This document shows, piece after piece, positions 54,108 to 63,058 of a DNA stretch of 64,000 bases (position 1 is the first letter of the stretch; every line of letters starts with the position of its first letter). Both the position numbers and the translations under genes were made by a program. Source of the DNA: Edaphobacter sp. (lineage in GTDB: Bacteria; Acidobacteriota; Terriglobia; Terriglobales; Acidobacteriaceae); the NCBI GenBank assembly GCA_050012935.1, contig JBEKGF010000023.1:4554-68553 (forward strand), in the 5' to 3' direction. The notes beneath the pieces are model-generated. The model had not been told where the DNA came from. It saw only the letters and a list, made by a program, of their open reading frames with translations, and did not search any database.

Positions 54108-55514
54108 ATGAGCGCGGCGCAACGAGACCTGCTACCACTGGACGAACCGGCAGCCGAAACGGAAGCCACAGCCCCGGTTGCATTAAAGGAACCGTTCGCA
54201 CTCAAGGAACAGGTAGCCCAGCGTCTCGCCGCCCATCGCGCCCGCCGCACACAACGATCCGGCAGCGCCCAAACCCCCATCGCCAGCCCGGAGCCGGCGA
54301 ACTCGCGCACCTCCCGCATCGCCGCCGCAGTCGCCGAGCGCTATGCCAACTCGCAAAGCTACCGCGCCTTTCTCGCCGCCCAGGCCGAGACCGCCATCCG
54401 CGAAGCCCAGGCTGCAGCCGAGGTCGCAGCTCTCAATGCTCAGGCGGTCGCCGACGCCCAGTTCCAGCTCCTCGCGGAACTCGACCAATGGACTCTGACG
54501 CCTTCTGCACCGCCCCCAGCAACTCCTTCAGAGCATGCGCCGCGAATCACCGAAGCTCTACCCTCCACTCCATCTAACCCGTCGCAAGCCTACGGCCTTA
54601 CCGTCAGGCTCTACGACGAGGAGCAGGTTCCGCAAAAATATTTGCAACCGCACCTTACCTCAAACCGGGTCGACTCTCTGCTGTCGCTCGACGAAACCGA
54701 AGCGCTGGCCCTCGACGAAGAGATTGCCTTCCGCCAGTCGCCCGTCTTCGAGGACGCAGCGCCTCCCGTCGACCTCCCCGCCAACCTTATCGAGTTCCCC
54801 CGTCAGTTAGTAGCTCCGCGCAAAGCTCGTCCCCGGCTTGCCGAGGGCCCCTTGCGCGAAGAAGCCGATCACTCCGCACACCAGAACCCGGAGACGGCCC
54901 AACTCCGCATCTTCGAGGTCGAAGCCGCTCAGATCTCCACCGCTCCGGCCGTAGAATCCGTAGACCCCGAGTGGTCTTCCATCCTCCTCGCGGCCCATCC
55001 CCATCCCACCACCCCCCTCCTCGAGACTCCCGAAGCCCCCTTCCAGCCGGTCTTCTCCTCCCCGACCAAATCCCAGACCGCACCCTTCAATCTCCGCCTC
55101 ATGGCTGCCGTCGTCGACGGCTGCCTCATCGCCGCCGCTCTACTCGCCTTCATCGCTGTAGCTGCCCTCGCCGTCGGAAAATTCTCAGAAGGCCACGCAA
55201 CCATCGCAACCGAAATCCACATGACGCCGCAAGCCGCGTTGCTTGCAGCCACTGCGACATTGATCGTCCTCACCCTGCTCTACCAGCTCCTCTTCTTCAC
55301 TTTTTCAGAAGCGACTCCCGGCATGCGCTACGCCCGCATCGGTCTCTGCACCTTCTCCGACGACAACCCCACCCGCGCCGCCATACGCCGCCGCATCGTC
55401 GCCACCATCCTCGCCGCCTGCCCACTCGGCATAGGCTTCCTCTGGGCCTGGCTCGACGACGACGGCCTCGGCTGGCATGACCGCATCTCCCGCATGTATC
55501 AACGCAGCTACTAG
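54108..55514 (+). CDS. RDD family membrane protein with long N-terminal low-complexity region
   Basis: APFNLRLMAAVVD, TPGMR and HDRISR RDD motifs in the C-terminal third. Confidence 0.85.
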   Translation: MSAAQRDLLPLDEPAAETEATAPVALKEPFALKEQVAQRLAAHRARRTQRSGSAQTPIASPEPANSRTSRIAAAVAERYANSQSYRAFLAAQAETAIREAQAAAEVAALNAQAVADAQFQLLAELDQWTLTPSAPPPATPSEHAPRITEALPSTPSNPSQAYGLTVRLYDEEQVPQKYLQPHLTSNRVDSLLSLDETEALALDEEIAFRQSPVFEDAAPPVDLPANLIEFPRQLVAPRKARPRLAEGPLREEADHSAHQNPETAQLRIFEVEAAQISTAPAVESVDPEWSSILLAAHPHPTTPLLETPEAPFQPVFSSPTKSQTAPFNLRLMAAVVDGCLIAAALLAFIAVAALAVGKFSEGHATIATEIHMTPQAALLAATATLIVLTLLYQLLFFTFSEATPGMRYARIGLCTFSDDNPTRAAIRRRIVATILAACPLGIGFLWAWLDDDGLGWHDRISRMYQRSY

Positions 55515-55516
55515 AC

Positions 55517-55600
55517 TAGAGCTGTCTTGTAAACTAGAGCTGTCTTGTAACTAGAGCTGTCTTGTAACAAGAGCTGTCTTGCAGAGTAGAGCTTTCTTGC
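55517..55600 (+). repeat. Tandem array of five 17-18-bp units
   Basis: TAGAGCTGTCTTGTAAAC, TAGAGCTGTCTTGTAAC x2, AAGAGCTGTCTTGCAGAG and TAGAGCTTTCTTGC, with no spacers. Confidence 0.85.
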
Positions 55601-55617
55601 CGCGTCCTCTTCAGCTT

Positions 55618-55880
55618 TGTCATTCTGAGCGCAGCGAAGAACCCCCGCATTTGCATTTGCATTTGCAGTTGCATTTGCAGTTGTCGTTGCTCGTTGCTCG
55701 TTTTTTAGTTTGTCACCCTTCGCCGAAGGCGGAGGATCTGCCTTTGTCTCTGCCTTTTGTCTTTGTCGTTGCTTCCAGATGAGGGGGTTTCAGCCGCGTC
55801 TAGCCCGCAAGCGCCTCACCGCTCTGCCCTGAACAGCGTCGAAGGGCCGGAGCGAAGCCCGAAGGGGCAAAGCGACTGAT
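55618..55880 (+). repeat. Cluster of REP-like family B palindromes with (TTGCA[TG])n linker
   Basis: TGTCATTCTGAGCGCAGCGAAGAACCCCCGCATTT, TTGCAT/TTGCAG hexamers, TGTCACCCTTCGCCGAAGGCGGAGGATCTG and a further GC-rich hairpin. Confidence 0.7.
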
Positions 55881-55944
55881 TTATCGCTCTTGCATTCGCC
55901 GCAAACCACAGACAAGAAACACTTTACAAACCACCAAATTATCT

Positions 55945-56231
55945 TTTAGCGTTTTAAGCCCAAAAATCGCATGTCAAGCTCCGAAGCCACCTAAATCACT
56001 CAATCAAAACGAGTTATAATTGGCGTATTAGTTCCACTCAGCCAGCTATAATGGATATATAGAGTCAAGAAAAAGCCCCGGCACAGACTGGGGCTTCGCA
56101 TTTAAGCCAGTAAGTCGTTTGCTGGCACGAATTTAGCAATAAGTCCCGTGGTTGCACATATTTAGCAGGGATTGAACTAGCTATATCATTGCAGCCATTG
56201 AAGTTATCGCCGACAATAGGGGGGGTACCCC
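55945..56231 (+). repeat. Dispersed ~300-bp non-coding element, copy 3
   Basis: AAAATCGCATGTCAAGC (55963), CCTAA, TTGGCGTATTAGTTCC, GCTATAATGGATATATAGAGTCAAGAAAAAGCCCCGG hairpin, ...ATTTAGC sub-repeats and GGGGGGGTACCCC end. Confidence 0.82.
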
Positions 56232-56435
56232 TGGGGAGAAGAGAAAGGAAGCAGAGACCAAGGAACAACGGCCCTACCTTTGTCATTCAATCCGATCCGA
56301 GCCATAGGGGCGCGCACGAACCAGATCCGAGGCATCATTCGGTTTCGCGGATGTAAGCACACATCCACTGTCGCTGGAGTTCATCGCCATCCTCAATCAC
56401 ATCCAACGTGAGAGAGGATCGGAACCAGGAGCTGC

Positions 56436-56858
56436 CTACGCCAAAGGAGCCTGCGCCGCGGCCAGCAGATCCGCGCTCACTGCAGACGGGTCTCCAGCCT
56501 TGCCAGCAACCAACTCTGCCGTGGCTGCGGCAGTAACAAGAGCCCCTGTAGTCGGTGCGCGCTTCGTCTGAAAGCATTGCCGGCAAAGCACAGGCCGCCC
56601 CTGCGTCGGCTTGAACGGCACGGTCGTCTCGATACCGCACGCCGAACACTCCGTGCGTGTCTCCGTTCGCGAAAGACCGGCTGCGGCAGGCCCCGTACCG
56701 GCCTTCGCACTCGCGCCGGACCGCTTGGACTTGCATGGTTTGCAACGCTTCGGGTCATTCTTGAACTGTTTGTCGAAGAAGAAAAGTTGTTCCCCGGCGG
56801 TGAAGATGAACTCCCCGCCACAATCTGCACAGGTTAAGAGCCGATCCACAAATTCCAT
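56436..56858 (-). CDS. Double zinc-ribbon protein (zf-trcl plus CxxC-x17-CxxC type)
   Basis: DRLLTCADCGGEFIFTAGEQLFF...PKRCKPCK and CSACG...VPFKP...RPVLCRQCF. Confidence 0.9.
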   Translation of the reverse strand: MEFVDRLLTCADCGGEFIFTAGEQLFFFDKQFKNDPKRCKPCKSKRSGASAKAGTGPAAAGLSRTETRTECSACGIETTVPFKPTQGRPVLCRQCFQTKRAPTTGALVTAAATAELVAGKAGDPSAVSADLLAAAQAPLA

Positions 56859-57142
56859 ACCGCTTCTCCCGTTCGTTACGGAAAGGAAGAACATCCAGCG
56901 AGCCTGATCGTGGCAACACCCTGGAATTCAACCTTTGCTGATAATTGGTGCTTCCTGGTTTTTTGAGGGGGCCCGGAATGCTGAAACGCTTCGATTTGCC
57001 AGTCAATGTGGGCCGGTCGATTGGCTCTCTCTGCTGGTGCCAGTCAATGGCGGGAGTCCACTGCGCTGGCGGGTTCAAGAGGCCGCCTCGTCAGACTCTT
57101 CAAAAGAGGAGGAGACGGCCTGTCTTGGTTGCGGAGCAGCGA

Positions 57143-57340
57143 CTAATCCTGCTCCTTACGTACCTTCTTGCGATTGCGCTTACGTGCAAGCGCCTCTTTC
57201 ACGCGCTTCTTCTCACCTGGTTTCAGATAAAAAGAGTGGCGCTTAACTTCCTTGATGATGTCTTCCGTCTGCACCTTGCGCTTGAAGCGCCGCAGTGCGT
57301 TCTCAAGGGGTTCGCCTTCTTGTACTCGAACCTCTGCCAA
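57143..57340 (-). CDS. rpsU: 30S ribosomal protein bS21
   Basis: GEPLENALRRFKRKV...EVKRHSFYLKPGEKKR. TTG start with GGAGGTG SD. Confidence 0.95.
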   Translation of the reverse strand: MAEVRVQEGEPLENALRRFKRKVQTEDIIKEVKRHSFYLKPGEKKRVKEALARKRNRKKVRKEQD

Positions 57341-57495
57341 GAAAAATACACCTCCAAACATTCCCAATCGGGACACGTTCAGAATACGCCAGTTTGACTC
57401 GAAAATCACATAAAATCGTGGCTAATTTGACCTTGCAAAACTACAAAATCCCTCCATCAAAAACTCACCTTCCGCTTCAGCGTAAAATTCACTCT

Positions 57496-58017
57496 ATGAT
57501 CCGGTCCTATCAGGGAATAACTCCAGTCATTCCAACAAGCTGCTACATCGATCCCTCCGCGCAGATTATCGGCGACGTCATTCTGGGAGAACAGGCAAGT
57601 GTATGGATGAACGCTGTCATCCGCGGCGATGTTAACTCAATACGCATCGGCGCGAAGAGCAATGTGCAAGACTGTGCAGTCTTGCACGGCATGCGATACA
57701 TCTACCCAGTCATCGTTGGAGAGATGGTCACCATAGGCCACAACGCGACAGTGCACGGTTGCGTGTTGGAGGATGCTGTGCTCGTAGGCATTGGCGCCAC
57801 CATCCTCAACAATGCTCGCATCGGAGAAGGTTCCATCATCGCTGCCGGAGCCGTCATTCCGGAGCAGACCGTCATTCCGCCAAACTCGCTGGTCGCAGGC
57901 GTACCGGGCAAAGTCCGTCGCACGCTTGGTGAGGATGACAGGGCGATGATCCTCAAATACGCGCAGAACTACCTTGATTACACCGCGATCTACCTCAGGG
58001 AAGCCTCCGGATCATAA
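57496..58017 (+). CDS. Gamma carbonic anhydrase family (YrdA-like) protein
   Basis: Hexapeptide repeats, IRGDVNSIRIG, NVQDCAVLH, TIGHNATVHGC and AGVPGK. Confidence 0.92.
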   Translation: MIRSYQGITPVIPTSCYIDPSAQIIGDVILGEQASVWMNAVIRGDVNSIRIGAKSNVQDCAVLHGMRYIYPVIVGEMVTIGHNATVHGCVLEDAVLVGIGATILNNARIGEGSIIAAGAVIPEQTVIPPNSLVAGVPGKVRRTLGEDDRAMILKYAQNYLDYTAIYLREASGS

Positions 58018-59374: not shown

Positions 59375-61204
59375 GTGAATAGGATCATGTTGGATTTTTT
59401 AGGCAGTTTGCAGCGGACACATACTTGTGGCCAGCTTCGCGCAGAGCAGAATGGGCAACCGGTGGTCCTGATGGGCTGGGTCAACCGGCGGCGGGACCAT
59501 GGGAACCTGATCTTTCTTGATGTTCGGGACCGCACCGGCATTACTCAAGTGGTGCTCGATAAGGAAGTGTCCGGCGAGGCGCATGCGAAGGCCGAGACGG
59601 CGCGCTCCGAGTACGTTGTCGCGGTGAAGGGCAAGGTGCGGCGCCGCGGTGCTGGCCTTGAGAACCCCAACATGCCGACGGGACAGATTGAGGTTCTTGC
59701 CAGCGAGCTGCTGTTGCTGAACGAGGCGAAGACTCCGCCGTTTTCTCCTGCCGACGATGCGATTGCGAATGAGGAGGTGCGGCTGAAGTATCGCTACCTC
59801 GACCTGCGGCGGCCTGAGATGCAGTCGAACTTCGCGCTGCGCAGCCGTGTGGCGATGGCGATTCGGAACTACCTTGTTGGGGAAGGCTTCCTTGAGATTG
59901 AGACTCCTTTCATGACGAGGTCTACTCCCGAGGGCGCGCGCGATTACCTGGTGCCGAGCCGGGTTCATGCGGGCAGCTTCTATGCGCTGCCGCAGTCTCC
60001 ACAGATCTTCAAGCAGATCCTGATGATCTCGGGATTCGATCGCTACTTCCAAATTGCTCGCTGTTTCCGCGATGAGGACCTTCGTGCGGACCGTCAGCCG
60101 GAGTTTACCCAGATCGACCTGGAGATGACTTTTCCCCAGCAGGAGATGGTGTTTCGCGTGGTTGAAGGTTTTCTGACTGCGGCGTTTGCGACGGCTGGGA
60201 TTCAACTGACTGCTCCTTTCGTGCAGATGACCTACGACGATGCGATTAAGAACTACGGGATCGACAAGCCGGATATGCGGCTGCCGGCGATGGTTTCGTT
60301 GAGCGATGAGCTGCCGGCCGAGCTGCGTGAGTCGTTGAAGATTGAGAAGGAGCTGCCGGTGCTTGGGTTTGTGATTCCCAAGGCGGCCGGTTTGAGCGGC
60401 ACGCAGAAGCGTGGTCTCGTCGAGGAGATTCGTGCTTCCTTCGGCGAGTCGGGCCTCGACTTTCTGGATGTGGCGCGGTTGAAGACGAACGCTTCATTCG
60501 CTCCGTTGGCAGAGACGATTGAGAAGAAGTTGAGCGCTGCCGCTGACGATCTGATCATTGTCATTACTCCCAGGATTGGCACTCCTGCACAGTGGAACTA
60601 CGATCCGCAGTGGATCTACAAGCGGGTTGGCGCGCTGCGGCTGGAGCTGGCGAAGAAGTATGCGGACAAGCACAAGCTCTTCGAGCAGACCGGCACGGCG
60701 GCGGACTTCAAGTTTGCCTGGGTCACCGACTTTCCCATGTATGAGTGGGACGAGGAGACGAAGACGTGGAACGCTGCCCATCATCCGTTTACGTCGCCGC
60801 ACGAAGAGGACATCAAGTCGGGCAAGCTGACCAGCGACAAGGGCGCCGTTCGTGCGCTTGCGTATGACATCGTGCTGAACGGGACGGAGCTTGGTTCGGG
60901 CTCGATCCGCATTCACCGCAAGGATGTGCAGGCGGAGATCTTCCGTTCGCTGGGCATGTCGGATGAAGAGGCGAAGGAGCGGTTCGGGTTCTTCCTCGAT
61001 GCGCTGGAGTACGGCACGCCTCCGCATGGCGGAATTGCGCTGGGTCTGGACCGGATTGTGATGATTCTTGCTGGTGCGACGAGCCTCCGTGAGGTGATTG
61101 CGTTTCCGAAGACGGCGAAGGCGATCGACCTGATGGTCGATGCGCCTACACCGGTGAGCGATCACCAGATGCGGGAGCTGCATCTGAAGGTGAACCCGCG
61201 CTAG
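59375..61204 (+). CDS. aspS: Aspartate--tRNA ligase, probably non-discriminating (Asp/Asn)
   Basis: RRRDHG (His, typical of the non-discriminating type), RLKYRYLDLRRP, LPQSPQ, RDEDLRADRQPEFTQID and PPHGGIALGLDR. Confidence 0.97.
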   Translation: MNRIMLDFLGSLQRTHTCGQLRAEQNGQPVVLMGWVNRRRDHGNLIFLDVRDRTGITQVVLDKEVSGEAHAKAETARSEYVVAVKGKVRRRGAGLENPNMPTGQIEVLASELLLLNEAKTPPFSPADDAIANEEVRLKYRYLDLRRPEMQSNFALRSRVAMAIRNYLVGEGFLEIETPFMTRSTPEGARDYLVPSRVHAGSFYALPQSPQIFKQILMISGFDRYFQIARCFRDEDLRADRQPEFTQIDLEMTFPQQEMVFRVVEGFLTAAFATAGIQLTAPFVQMTYDDAIKNYGIDKPDMRLPAMVSLSDELPAELRESLKIEKELPVLGFVIPKAAGLSGTQKRGLVEEIRASFGESGLDFLDVARLKTNASFAPLAETIEKKLSAAADDLIIVITPRIGTPAQWNYDPQWIYKRVGALRLELAKKYADKHKLFEQTGTAADFKFAWVTDFPMYEWDEETKTWNAAHHPFTSPHEEDIKSGKLTSDKGAVRALAYDIVLNGTELGSGSIRIHRKDVQAEIFRSLGMSDEEAKERFGFFLDALEYGTPPHGGIALGLDRIVMILAGATSLREVIAFPKTAKAIDLMVDAPTPVSDHQMRELHLKVNPR

Positions 61205-61787
61205 CCGGTTCCGTGGGCTCTTCGCGGGATGGGATCACGGCTAAGGACCGGGTCTCTTCGACGACGCTTGTGACAGGCTCTGCGATCGGCGTTTCAGGTT
61301 CGGCTGGAGGCGATCGTTTTCGGGTGGGGGGAGTTGGCGGTTCTTGCGGTTCGGGGTCGAGCTCGAGGCGAGAGAAGACCTCGATGATGGCTCCTGGTTC
61401 TGCGAGATCGAGGCCGCTGGGCGAGGACTCGACGGCGCGGACGACCTCCGGTGTGCCGGGTGCATTGTTGAGGCGGGCTGCGTTGGAGGATGCGAGCTGA
61501 AGGCCGTAGAGCAGTACGGTCGCGCGTTTCGGGTCGATGCGATTGGTGGCGAGGGCATTGACGACGACTGAGATTGCGAGCTGGACGGACTCACGGTCTT
61601 CAAGAACGCAGAGCTCGAGGTCTCGCCCGTGGGTAAAGTAAGCTCGGGTCTCGTCGGTGGCGCGAAAGTTGGCGTGGCGGGCGTGAAGGCGGTTGTGAAA
61701 GTAGCACCACTGGCCTCCGGTGAGGGCGGGCGCGTGGCATTGCAGACCGTTGGTTTTGATGTGACGGCAGAGCGGATATTGTTCCAT
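61146..61787 (-). CDS. Hypothetical protein with N-terminal C-x9-C-x10-C-x2-H zinc-finger-like motif, directly downstream of element copy 4
   Basis: CRHIKTNGLQCHAPALTGGQWCYFH followed by a helical LEDRESVQLAIS...RIDPKRATVLLYGLQLASSN block. AGGAG SD at 61796-61800. Confidence 0.75.
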   Translation of the reverse strand: MEQYPLCRHIKTNGLQCHAPALTGGQWCYFHNRLHARHANFRATDETRAYFTHGRDLELCVLEDRESVQLAISVVVNALATNRIDPKRATVLLYGLQLASSNAARLNNAPGTPEVVRAVESSPSGLDLAEPGAIIEVFSRLELDPEPQEPPTPPTRKRSPPAEPETPIAEPVTSVVEETRSLAVIPSREEPTEPASAGSPSDAAPASGDRSPV

Positions 61788-61804
61788 GACGTTGTCTCCT
61801 TTGA

Positions 61805-62080
61805 GGGGCTCCCCCCCGGGGGGTGTTCCTTAAAAGTGCTGTGGTTGCAATGATTTAGCAAAATGGGTCGGGCTAAATTCCTGCAACCACAGGGGTTGTT
61901 GGTAAATTCGTCTTTCTAAACGGGAAAAGCCCCGGAATGAGCTTCCGGGGCTTTTTCTTGACTCTATATATCCAGTATAGCGGATTGGAGGGAACTAATA
62001 CGCCAAGTGTAACTTGATGTTGATCAATGGGTTAGGTGGTTTTGGGGCTTGACATGCGATTTTTGGGCTGAAAACGCAGA
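61805..62080 (-). repeat. Dispersed ~300-bp non-coding element, copy 4 (ORF-associated)
   Basis: Reverse complement reads AAAATCGCATGTCAAGC-N10-CCTAA...TTGGCGTATTAGTTCC...GCTATACTGGATATATAGAGTCAAGAAAAAGCCCCGG...CCGGGGCTTTT, then GTGGTTGCA...ATTTAGC repeats. Confidence 0.85.
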
Positions 62081-62230
62081 TTTTTTTTTTGGAATGGCGG
62101 AAGTCGCATCAATGCAATGGCAAGATCAACAGCAGAGTGCAAACGCGAATGCGGCGTTGCACTCGTGGAACGATCAGACAGGCGTTAGTGGGATCCGCTG
62201 AATCGATAGCTCAAGAGAAGACTACGGGCT

Positions 62231-63058
62231 TTAGTTCATCCAGCGTTTGTCGTTGGGGTTTTTGCGGAGTTCGTCGGGGTCGACGTAGCGGCCGTCTTTG
62301 TCGAAGTGGACTTCGCGGTTTTGCTTGCGCATGTAGACCTCGAACTTGCGGGCGGCGCGGCGGCGCTTCCAGCGGAAGTAGTTGTTGCGGACGCTGAAGT
62401 AGCTCTCGCTAAGACCGAAGGCGAAGCCTCTGCGCGGCGCGAATTTGACGTAGAGGAAGCCGCAGAGCGCGCCGGAGAGTTGAAGCAGGGCGTTGAAGGT
62501 GTCGGCCTGTTTGAGAAGGACAGCGACGGCGATGAGGATGTAGATGGCGACCATGTACTTCGCCTTGATGCGGACGAGGAACCAGAGCAGGAATTCCTGG
62601 TCGCCGAAGATCATGGCGATGGCGATGAGAAGGCCGAAGATGCCGGACCAGCATCCCGCGGTGGCGATTTCAGGGCGCAGATGCAGGACGTGGGTGAAGG
62701 AGATTGCGGAGGCGAGGATGGCGCCGCCGATGACTGAGGTGAAGTAGAGCTCGGCGAGCCAGCGGGAGCCGAAGGATGGCTCGAGGAGTGAGCCGGTGAA
62801 CCAGAGGGTGAGCATGCCGAAGAGAATTCCAAGGATGCCCTGCTCGATGAAGGAGTAGGTGGCGAGCTGCCAGATTTCGCCGTGGACGACAGCGAGAGGT
62901 TCGAGGATGAGGTGGCTGATGAAGAGGTCGGCAAGATGAGGAGCGAGCCAGCGGAGCAGGAGGATCGCGAAGAAGGCCCCGACGTTGGCGAGGATGAGCT
63001 TGCGAGTGGCTCCGGAGAAGGCGGGGAGGCTGAGCGAGATGGGGCCTGAGCGACGCAT
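62231..63058 (-). CDS. Rhomboid-fold membrane protein lacking catalytic residues (pseudoprotease)
   Basis: Rhomboid architecture (GEIWQLATY, FGMLTLWFTG, KAKY). GxSG reads GCWSG with Trp at the Ser position, and AHLGG reads LQLSG. Confidence 0.75.
   Translation of the reverse strand: MRRSGPISLSLPAFSGATRKLILANVGAFFAILLLRWLAPHLADLFISHLILEPLAVVHGEIWQLATYSFIEQGILGILFGMLTLWFTGSLLEPSFGSRWLAELYFTSVIGGAILASAISFTHVLHLRPEIATAGCWSGIFGLLIAIAMIFGDQEFLLWFLVRIKAKYMVAIYILIAVAVLLKQADTFNALLQLSGALCGFLYVKFAPRRGFAFGLSESYFSVRNNYFRWKRRRAARKFEVYMRKQNREVHFDKDGRYVDPDELRKNPNDKRWMN

Follow-up and report, generated by a model that had tools for sequence, protein, structure and literature searches.

The DNA under study is a window of 64,000 nucleotides (nt) from Edaphobacter sp. 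(assembly GCA_050012935.1, contig JBEKGF010000023.1, positions 4,554-68,553), a genome of 5.36 Mb to which we give the label G000; "the window" always means this whole stretch. We will focus on one locus near its right end, where a small zinc-finger open reading frame (ORF) runs towards aspS and is preceded by a copy of a structured repeat. We call the zinc-finger ORF and its gene family ZnF, and the repeat, which is about 300 nt long, the element or the module; a solo copy is an element without a ZnF ORF. The features of the locus, in window positions, are the following:

59375-61204, plus strand: aspS, which converges on ZnF; the ZnF tail extends over its last 59 bp.
61146-61787, minus strand: the ZnF ORF (213 amino acids), which encodes a CCCH zinc knuckle, then a helical hairpin, and ends in a variable tail.
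61146..61376, minus strand: the variable, low-complexity ZnF tail, whose final 59 bp (61146-61204) are antisense to the end of aspS.
61377..61787, minus strand: the conserved core of the ZnF protein, residues 1-137, as defined by alignment A1 (45 ZnF family members).
61796-61802, minus strand: Shine-Dalgarno (SD) sequence AAAGGAG, with the ATG 8 nt downstream and the G/C-rich palindrome 4 nt away.
61801..62092, minus strand: the whole element in its ZnF-linked form, copy 4.
61805-61829, minus strand: the G/C-rich palindrome, C6G7 in copy 4, within hairpin 3 (61800..61834).
61839..61892, minus strand: hairpin 2, with 21-nt arms and an internal loop, made of a sub-repeat and its inverted copy.
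61893..61924, minus strand: sub-repeat U1 of about 30 nt (...GACGAATTTACC...), with which the series of tandem 29-30-nt units begins.
61925..61955, minus strand: hairpin 1, a perfect 13-bp stem between an A-run and a T-run.
61974..62006, minus strand: Box B, TTGGCGTATTAGTT-N13-TATACT; the -10-like hexamer in it (TAnAAT type) is retained by nearly all copies.
62031..62092, minus strand: Box A (GCCCAAAAATCGCATGTCAAGCCCCAAAACCACCTAAC) with the T-rich left end, the most conserved block of the element family.
62231..63058, minus strand: a rhomboid-like ORF, upstream of the element.

The N-terminus of the ZnF protein (MEQYPLCRHIKTNGLQCHAPALTGGQWCYFH) carries the four zinc ligands C7, C17, C28 and H31, in the arrangement C7-x9-C17-x10-C28-x2-H31. 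The first-pass annotation had recognised both this spacing and the SD sequence close to the G/C-rich end of the element, and the two readings are correct, while the "HGGxSTG-type finger" with which it compared the spacing could not be tied to any family. Within alignment A1, two blocks of the core, EDRESVQ and LLYGLQLA, are without variation and are followed by a GLDLAEPGA motif, and the invariant positions include, in addition to the ligands, E63, D64, E66, Q69, Y94 and G95. Beyond GLDLAEPGA the tail is acidic (D/E-rich) in most members, and in the window it is a Pro/Glu-rich stretch running antisense into aspS. The AlphaFold2 (AF2) model is ordered over residues 1-105 and disordered over the remainder; its core is built from the zinc knuckle and three helices (29-39, 65-80 and 86-104), with no beta-sheet. 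The dN/dS ratio is 0.12 when the ORF is compared with its closest aspS-linked ortholog and has a median of 0.30 in the aspS-linked group, and on these values ZnF is a real gene under purifying selection, and a fairly fast-evolving one.

The only name found on ZnF homologs is "hypothetical protein" (Granulicella, Edaphobacter, Acidobacteriota). The family comprises 470 clusters at 90% identity and 4,173 clusters at 50% identity (E<=1e-3), and is present in 0-11 copies per genome, which agrees with the earlier guess of a multi-copy and unannotated protein type. Pfam and NCBIfam searches give no match at E<=1, PHROGs and PADLOC searches assign no family (a single insignificant match, E 0.038), a PDB profile search gives no match, and Foldseek finds no fold in the PDB that matches the model. 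Ten long homologs contain no Pfam domain; indeed, homologs of 300-470 residues have no additional domain, and are extended only by low-complexity read-through into flanking DNA. The observation made at first pass, that the protein lacks any DDE, HUH, serine or tyrosine recombinase or reverse transcriptase motif, is thus upheld by Pfam/NCBIfam, AF2 and Foldseek alike. Nothing in the predicted protein indicates an enzyme, and the model bears no sign of a catalytic fold. We found no description of the ZnF family or of the element in the literature. One more tail read from flanking DNA can be mentioned here, that of paralog 3 (L003, G000:C141:3860-5429), whose ORF has no stop for 523 codons and crosses, in another frame, the beginning of the MFS-transporter gene that lies downstream.

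The element has a constant order: a T-rich lead, Box A, Box B (here TTGGCGTATTAGTT-N13-TATAcT), hairpin 1, two or three sub-repeats, the G/C palindrome and finally GGAG. The sub-repeats, of 29-30 nt, build the long hairpin 2, and the palindrome reads G5-8TAC4-7 in most homologous leaders. Because its 13-bp stem is flanked by an A-run and a T-run, hairpin 1 looks like a bidirectional terminator; the sequence of the stem varies among copies and its pairing is retained. Minimum free energy folds of the ZnF leaders give three hairpins, and in some homologs the SD sequence pairs with an upstream CCUUU. Covariation was followed in 16 ZnF leaders, over 19 predicted pairs (15 in hairpin 2, 4 in the G/C palindrome), and 9 of the 19 stay paired through changes on both sides. 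A nucleic-acid structure, either RNA or single-stranded DNA (ssDNA), is therefore under constraint in the leader. The G-U and A-C pairs of this set (about 10 vs 7) do not discriminate the transcribed strand, and the better folding of the reverse strand, seen in 36/44 copies, is confounded by its G/T-rich composition. No Rfam family matches the window at gathering thresholds, 61700-62250 giving only sub-threshold chance hits, and no terminal inverted repeats (TIRs) join the two ends of copy 4 or of copy 3, an ORF-less copy described below.

Two other promoter readings of the element were considered and rejected. The first is a sigma-54 promoter (TGGCAC-N5-TTGC; GG/GC at 12-nt spacing), the -24 GG of which is missing from the family consensus; the second takes the TTGACA on the reverse strand of Box A as a -35, for which no -10 is conserved at the correct spacing. 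A few individual sub-repeats are near-perfect sigma-54 -24/-12 sites, as in copy 3 at 56122-56138 (CTGGCACGAATTTAGCA) and at L057 of G020.

The association of the gene with the element was examined at 65 homolog loci, drawn from representative genomes (GTDB) of Edaphobacter, Tunturiibacter, Granulicella and strain KBS 89. The element is found upstream in 64 of the 65, where it ends 17-63 nt before the start codon, and it is near full length in 59. It is also present, in the same orientation, upstream of 3/3 ZnF paralogs of G000, and it precedes the gene in at least 24/29 ZnF loci of close relatives. Since only about 24 genes of G000 (well under 1%) have an element directly in front, this association is far beyond chance. 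It is retained, moreover, in paralogs of G000 and its close relatives that have diverged to 35-45% identity. Such a survey of homologs had been proposed at first pass, with the reasoning that a dedicated pair would be refuted by homologs that are single-copy, syntenic with aspS and usually free of the element; what we find is a multi-copy family, located beside aspS at 14-17 of the 65 loci and headed by the element at all loci save one.

The gene and its module also duplicate together. Within-genome ZnF pairs share sharp blocks of 775-825 bp with 92-97% identity, which contain the element and the ORF and lie in unrelated flanks. The right boundary of these blocks is inside the ZnF tail, so that each copy obtains its stop codon from the flank, and it is for this reason that the tail of the window's copy runs into aspS. 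The right end of the full unit, which lies in the ORF tail, has no conserved structure. Gene and module are one heritable unit of about 0.8 kb, occasionally duplicated as a block, and the pairing of full and ORF-less copies noticed in the first-pass annotation is in this sense a real one.

The aspS locus allows one to follow the history of the unit. The overlap with aspS had been interpreted at first pass as what is expected of an insertion at a gene end. The 59 bp of antisense are there, and no terminator-like site is found behind the ZnF ORF, but the insertion is not a fresh one, the locus being an old, vertically inherited and orthologous one that many species have in common and that accounts for 14-17 of the loci surveyed; a second context is common to another 11, and the survey covers 29 contexts altogether. 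The aspS-linked copy is carried, among others, by cultured strains such as Tunturiibacter gelidiferens and Granulicella sp. L60. The comparison of this site among relatives, which had also been suggested, reveals some sites that are empty, others that carry a truncated gene and others with no more than a solo remnant. The aspS-rhomboid spacer is empty in G007 and G015 (about 66 bp, with a single bidirectional terminator hairpin), is occupied by the element and ZnF in G000 and G011, by the element and a truncated ZnF in G018 (L066), and by a partial solo element in G021 (L065), where ZnF is deleted and Box A to hairpin 1 are left; in G002 and G020 it contains other repeats. At a further aspS-linked copy, L194, ZnF is frameshifted. 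G018, G021 and L194 show successive stages in the decay of the unit at this orthologous locus, and the loss of the ORF there documents one way in which a full unit can become a solo element. A second site, in front of trpS, holds an element in G000 and G018 and a partial one in G002, and none in the equally close G010. The genes upstream of trpS differ among genomes, and both there and at aspS-rhomboid the divergence or rearrangement between empty and filled sites prevents the reading of junctions or of a target duplication. These data establish a two-part unit, made of a protein and its own structured upstream module, which is vertically persistent.

BLAST detects 43-54 element repeat loci in G000, from which we retained a curated set of 44 copies that each have both Box A and Box B. 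In the window, further copies lie near 33.5, 37.8 and 55.9 kb, the last one being:

55930-56245, plus strand: element copy 3, which has no ORF; it is the copy most closely related to copy 4 and is turned the other way, beyond the GC-skew switch.

Copy 3 is 83% identical to copy 4 over 133 nt and is its sister in the tree; it has a right end of the same type (G7TAC4) and no forward ORF behind it. Its description at first pass, as the closest relative with the same right end and no ORF, is thus correct. It contains 29-nt tandem units at 56108-56165. Across the 44 copies, the upstream and downstream genes are both co-directional with the element in 17 cases, co-directional and convergent in 16, divergent and co-directional in 7, and opposite on both sides in 4. 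The intergenic gaps are tightly filled by the elements. For 8 non-ZnF genes of G000, among them kdsA and mnmA, the G/C palindrome lies no more than 45 nt from the start codon, and in about 9/19 solo copies of G020 the right end of the element supplies a GGAG directly before the start codon.

These last positions raise the question of a pure regulon without any mobility, in which a promoter/leader or terminator cassette would have been selected before many genes, ZnF being an autoregulated transcription, antitermination or translation factor. This would fit the conservation of Box A and Box B, which is far better than that of the remaining element, the succession of a -10-like hexamer and a promoter-proximal terminator-like hairpin, and the element-borne SD directly before kdsA, mnmA and the other genes just mentioned. 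It does not account for the copies that abut the 3' end of a convergent gene, nor for a similarity of about 300 nt, far beyond the needs of an operator, nor for the genome-specific clades that the copies form; the trpS element missing from G010 and counts that range from 0 to 66 within one genus speak against it as well. We consider such a regulon quite improbable.

To compare genomes we counted a Box A core 11-mer, hereafter the core, with the reversed 11-mer as a control. Within the genus there are 0-66 cores per genome, against 0-3 for the control, and in 16 genomes of a different family within the order both the Box A 19-mer and the ZnF gene are absent. The non-expanded genomes G004, G016 and G022 have four cores each. 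Two of the four lie upstream of ZnF genes in G016, which has two such genes, and at least one of the four in G022; G004 also has two ZnF genes. ZnF copy number and core count are correlated (rho 0.72, p 4e-5), and remain so after subtraction of the linked copies (rho 0.67), kinship being ignored in both cases. In the tree, the three ZnF-linked copies of G020 fall into a single tight clade with the solo copies of that genome, and copy 4 of G000 clusters with copy 3 and with its ZnF-linked orthologs in other species. There are no near-identical solo copies in G000. The solo module is amplified in some lineages to tens of strand-polar, ORF-less copies, in lineage-specific bursts. The cores that low-copy genomes keep at ZnF genes, the correlation, the single clade of G020 and the decay series at the aspS site all make the gene-linked copy resemble a reservoir.

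In G020 (L110-L129), the copies remain similar to one another for at least 145 nt leftwards of Box A, and three alternative left flanks recur (e.g. ...GTCATTACAGGCGAATCC...). The elements of this genome may be nested with another repeat family, or targeted beside it.

Y1 transposases (PF01797) were considered as an alternative mobiliser and rejected, as the presence of their genes does not track the abundance of the element: G011 has no Y1 gene at all yet 45 cores, and most genomes do have Y1 genes. This bears on a second explanation, in which the element, as an orphan repeat of a selfish or structural nature like BOX or ERIC, would have been spread by other machinery, with ZnF merely sitting behind an old copy, using its promoter and having no functional tie to it. 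One could invoke the Y1 genes of most genomes, the unrelated repeat families that crowd the same intergenic sites, and the fact that the solo copies of G000 are not the closest to its ZnF-linked copies. Such hitch-hiking is nevertheless hard to reconcile with a near-universal linkage that persists in paralogs at 35-45% identity, with the joint duplication of gene and element, with the cores kept largely at ZnF genes in low-copy genomes, and with the 45 cores of G011, and we regard it as very improbable.

The copies are not distributed evenly between the two DNA strands. Members of the IS200/IS605 family show an orientation bias relative to the replication strands, and a bias of this sort is found here: the forward strand of the element is on the locally C-rich strand in 37/44 copies of G000 (p 5e-6), and so is the ZnF coding strand in 53/62 loci of other genomes (p 1e-8), for a baseline of 53% in long ORFs. 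The GC skew of G000 is exceptionally strong (|skew| averages 0.11 per 50 kb), and its sign switches 37 times in 4 Mb. In the window, the plus strand has a skew of -0.2 to -0.3 up to about 56 kb and of +0.1 to +0.29 past 58 kb, with a switch near 56000-58000; copies 3 and 4, in opposite orientation on either side of this switch, both obey the polarity rule. Both tuf copies and the ribosomal-protein operon (contigs C86 and C12, about 39-55 kb) are on the locally C-rich strand, so the leading strand may be C-rich in G000. The 16S rRNA gene was not found in the G000 assembly with universal primer sites.

Such a polarity would be expected of transposons that move as ssDNA, and it is one argument for a third explanation, which takes up the mobilisation system suggested at first pass, namely that ZnF itself is the mobilisation protein of a minimal, IS200-like element. 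The protein would be a new and very small strand-transfer or targeting factor, with the invariant Tyr94 (LLYGLQ) and the acidic EDRE cluster as catalytic candidates, which would act on ssDNA hairpins and copy its own unit or, more often, only the 5' module. The size and layout of the unit match those of IS200 (PMC4513863). The sharp block duplication, the lineage-specific amplification, the presence/absence variation at the aspS and trpS sites and the correlated copy numbers of gene and element all go in the same direction, and the Y1 genes, which do not track the element, are poor alternative mobilisers. On the other side, the protein has none of the HUH, DDE, Ser/Tyr-recombinase or reverse transcriptase signatures, its predicted core is devoid of beta-sheet and matches no catalytic fold, the solo copies retain one end of the unit only, there are no terminal repeats and no target duplication can be defined, and G000 is lacking in near-identical solo copies. 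On balance we find this role unlikely.

The explanation that we prefer, with a probability of roughly one half, is that ZnF is a non-enzymatic, structure- or sequence-specific nucleic-acid binder that acts on its own promoter/leader module, a module that has been amplified as ORF-less copies. The protein consists of a core of about 140 residues (zinc knuckle, basic helix and a helical hairpin that bears the EDRESVQ and LLYGLQLA blocks) followed by a disposable, usually acidic tail, and the element is the gene family's own upstream module. The gene and module unit persists for long periods at fixed loci, such as the aspS one, and sometimes duplicates, and the ORF-less copies of the module fill intergenic gaps, either before unrelated start codons or against the 3' ends of genes. 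ZnF would recognise the module, and thereby bind both its own leader, in an autoregulatory manner, and the matching sites in solo copies; if so, the ZnF-linked copy would be the master form that persists, and the solo copies would derive from it. Copying could take place on ssDNA at the replication fork, through host functions or a further enzyme, a possibility that we draw from the strand polarity and the covarying hairpins.

Several observations weigh against this explanation. The predicted ZnF model resembles no recognised DNA- or RNA-binding fold (Foldseek vs PDB). A consensus scan of 61100-62300 calls no sigma-70 promoter, the Box B hexamer not being called because a -35 is absent. A convergent gene is faced by 20/44 copies, which abut gene 3' ends, so that not all copies can be 5' cassettes. 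The correlation between ZnF genes and cores is uncorrected for phylogeny or genome size, and G009 has 24 Box-A cores with no ZnF gene detected, in an assembly that is 82% complete. Most of the solo copies of G000 form a clade of their own, apart from the ZnF-linked copy.

The surroundings of copy 3 contain other features. The next gene after it is a convergent double-CxxC zinc-ribbon ORF at 56436-56858 on the minus strand (MEFVDRLLTCADCGGEFIFTAGEQLFFFDKQFKNDPKRCKPCK...), and the stretch behind copy 3, which had seemed free of genes, also holds rpsU (ribosomal protein S21) at 57143-57340, minus strand. Upstream of copy 3, the interval 55497-55900 is crowded with other repeats, namely five tandem units of about 17-18 nt (ACTAGAGCTGTCTTGTA), short tandem repeats of the GCATTTGCAGTT type and a REP-like GTCATTCTGAGCGCAGCGAAGAA hairpin motif. 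Motifs related to these repeats fill the aspS-rhomboid spacer in G002 and flank the elements in G020.

How does this unit compare to known systems? The BOX (boxA-boxB(n)-boxC, pneumococcal), ERIC and RUP sequences are modular orphan intergenic repeats. They occur in tens to hundreds of copies, and the element resembles them in being modular and intergenic, with a variable number of sub-repeats inside it and with hairpins predicted to be strong; we know of no dedicated linked protein gene for any of them, whereas the element heads one gene family (64/65) and is strand-polar. With regard to the pairs formed by a miniature inverted-repeat transposable element and its autonomous insertion sequence, there are here no shared TIRs, and the full copy has no recognisable transposase. 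The analogy with autonomous and non-autonomous elements drawn at first pass therefore stands as far as the dedicated pair is concerned, but not further, for besides the missing TIRs most solo copies of G000 are not recent descendants of copy 4.

In the REPIN-RAYT system, a low-copy and mostly vertical partner gene is attached to a population of short non-coding repeats (PMC3116915, PMC3337134, bioRxiv 10.1101/2021.07.10.451892). The ZnF unit is similar in that it has a linked partner gene, tens of copies within a genome, lineage-wise persistence and diversification, and numbers of genes and repeats that go together; both the vertical persistence (the aspS-linked locus of 14-17 genomes) and the co-occurrence of gene and repeat (rho 0.72) are traits of REPIN-RAYT. 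However, RAYT is a Y1/HUH transposase flanked by REPs, whereas ZnF is not a Y1 protein and has its repeat on the 5' side only; a REPIN consists of two inverted REP hairpins, whereas the element is a modular, directional and non-palindromic sequence of about 300 nt; and the ZnF gene is often multi-copy (up to 11).

IS200 has a length of 707 bp, a single ORF of about 150 residues, a bidirectional terminator at its left end and a stem-loop of the 5' untranslated region near the SD sequence (PMC4513863). The ZnF unit likewise has one ORF in about 0.7-0.8 kb, a bidirectional terminator-like hairpin in its left part, a structured 5' untranslated region by the SD sequence and no TIR. It differs by having neither a PF01797 match nor a predicted HUH fold, and by the lack of a definable structure at the right end, the ORF-less derivatives keeping only the 5' part. 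Lastly, putative mobile promoters are highly similar upstream regions found before unrelated genes of one genome (PMC3575422). The element too is a similar region before unrelated genes, to which it even supplies the SD sequence, but about half of its copies are not upstream of any gene and its source gene family can be identified. We thus file the unit under no known system, since the enzyme of REPIN-RAYT and IS200 is absent, BOX repeats have no partner gene and mobile promoters no identifiable source gene. The findings suggest a type of partnership between gene and repeat for which there is no earlier description.

A bolder proposal, which we consider doubtful, is that the ZnF unit represents a new class of mobile element or genomic symbiont, in which a zinc-knuckle and helical-hairpin protein of about 100 residues, devoid of any known catalytic fold, would direct the strand-specific, replication-coupled copying of its hairpin-rich 5' module, either alone (through the Tyr and the acidic cluster) or by recruiting host enzymes. 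If this were true, portable terminator-promoter-SD cassettes would be distributed across the genomes of the Acidobacteriaceae as the module spreads.

Little is known of the genetics of the Acidobacteriaceae, which count among the most abundant bacteria of soils. The protein family defined here (>4,000 clusters at 50% identity) is unannotated and is nearly always coupled to a conserved, structured module of 300 nt, which has spread in a strand-polar manner to up to about 65 intergenic sites per genome. In some cases housekeeping genes, kdsA and mnmA among them, receive their ribosome-binding site from this module. If ZnF mobilises the module, it would be a new type of transposition protein; if it binds the module, a lineage-wide regulatory or architectural network would have been built by repeat amplification.

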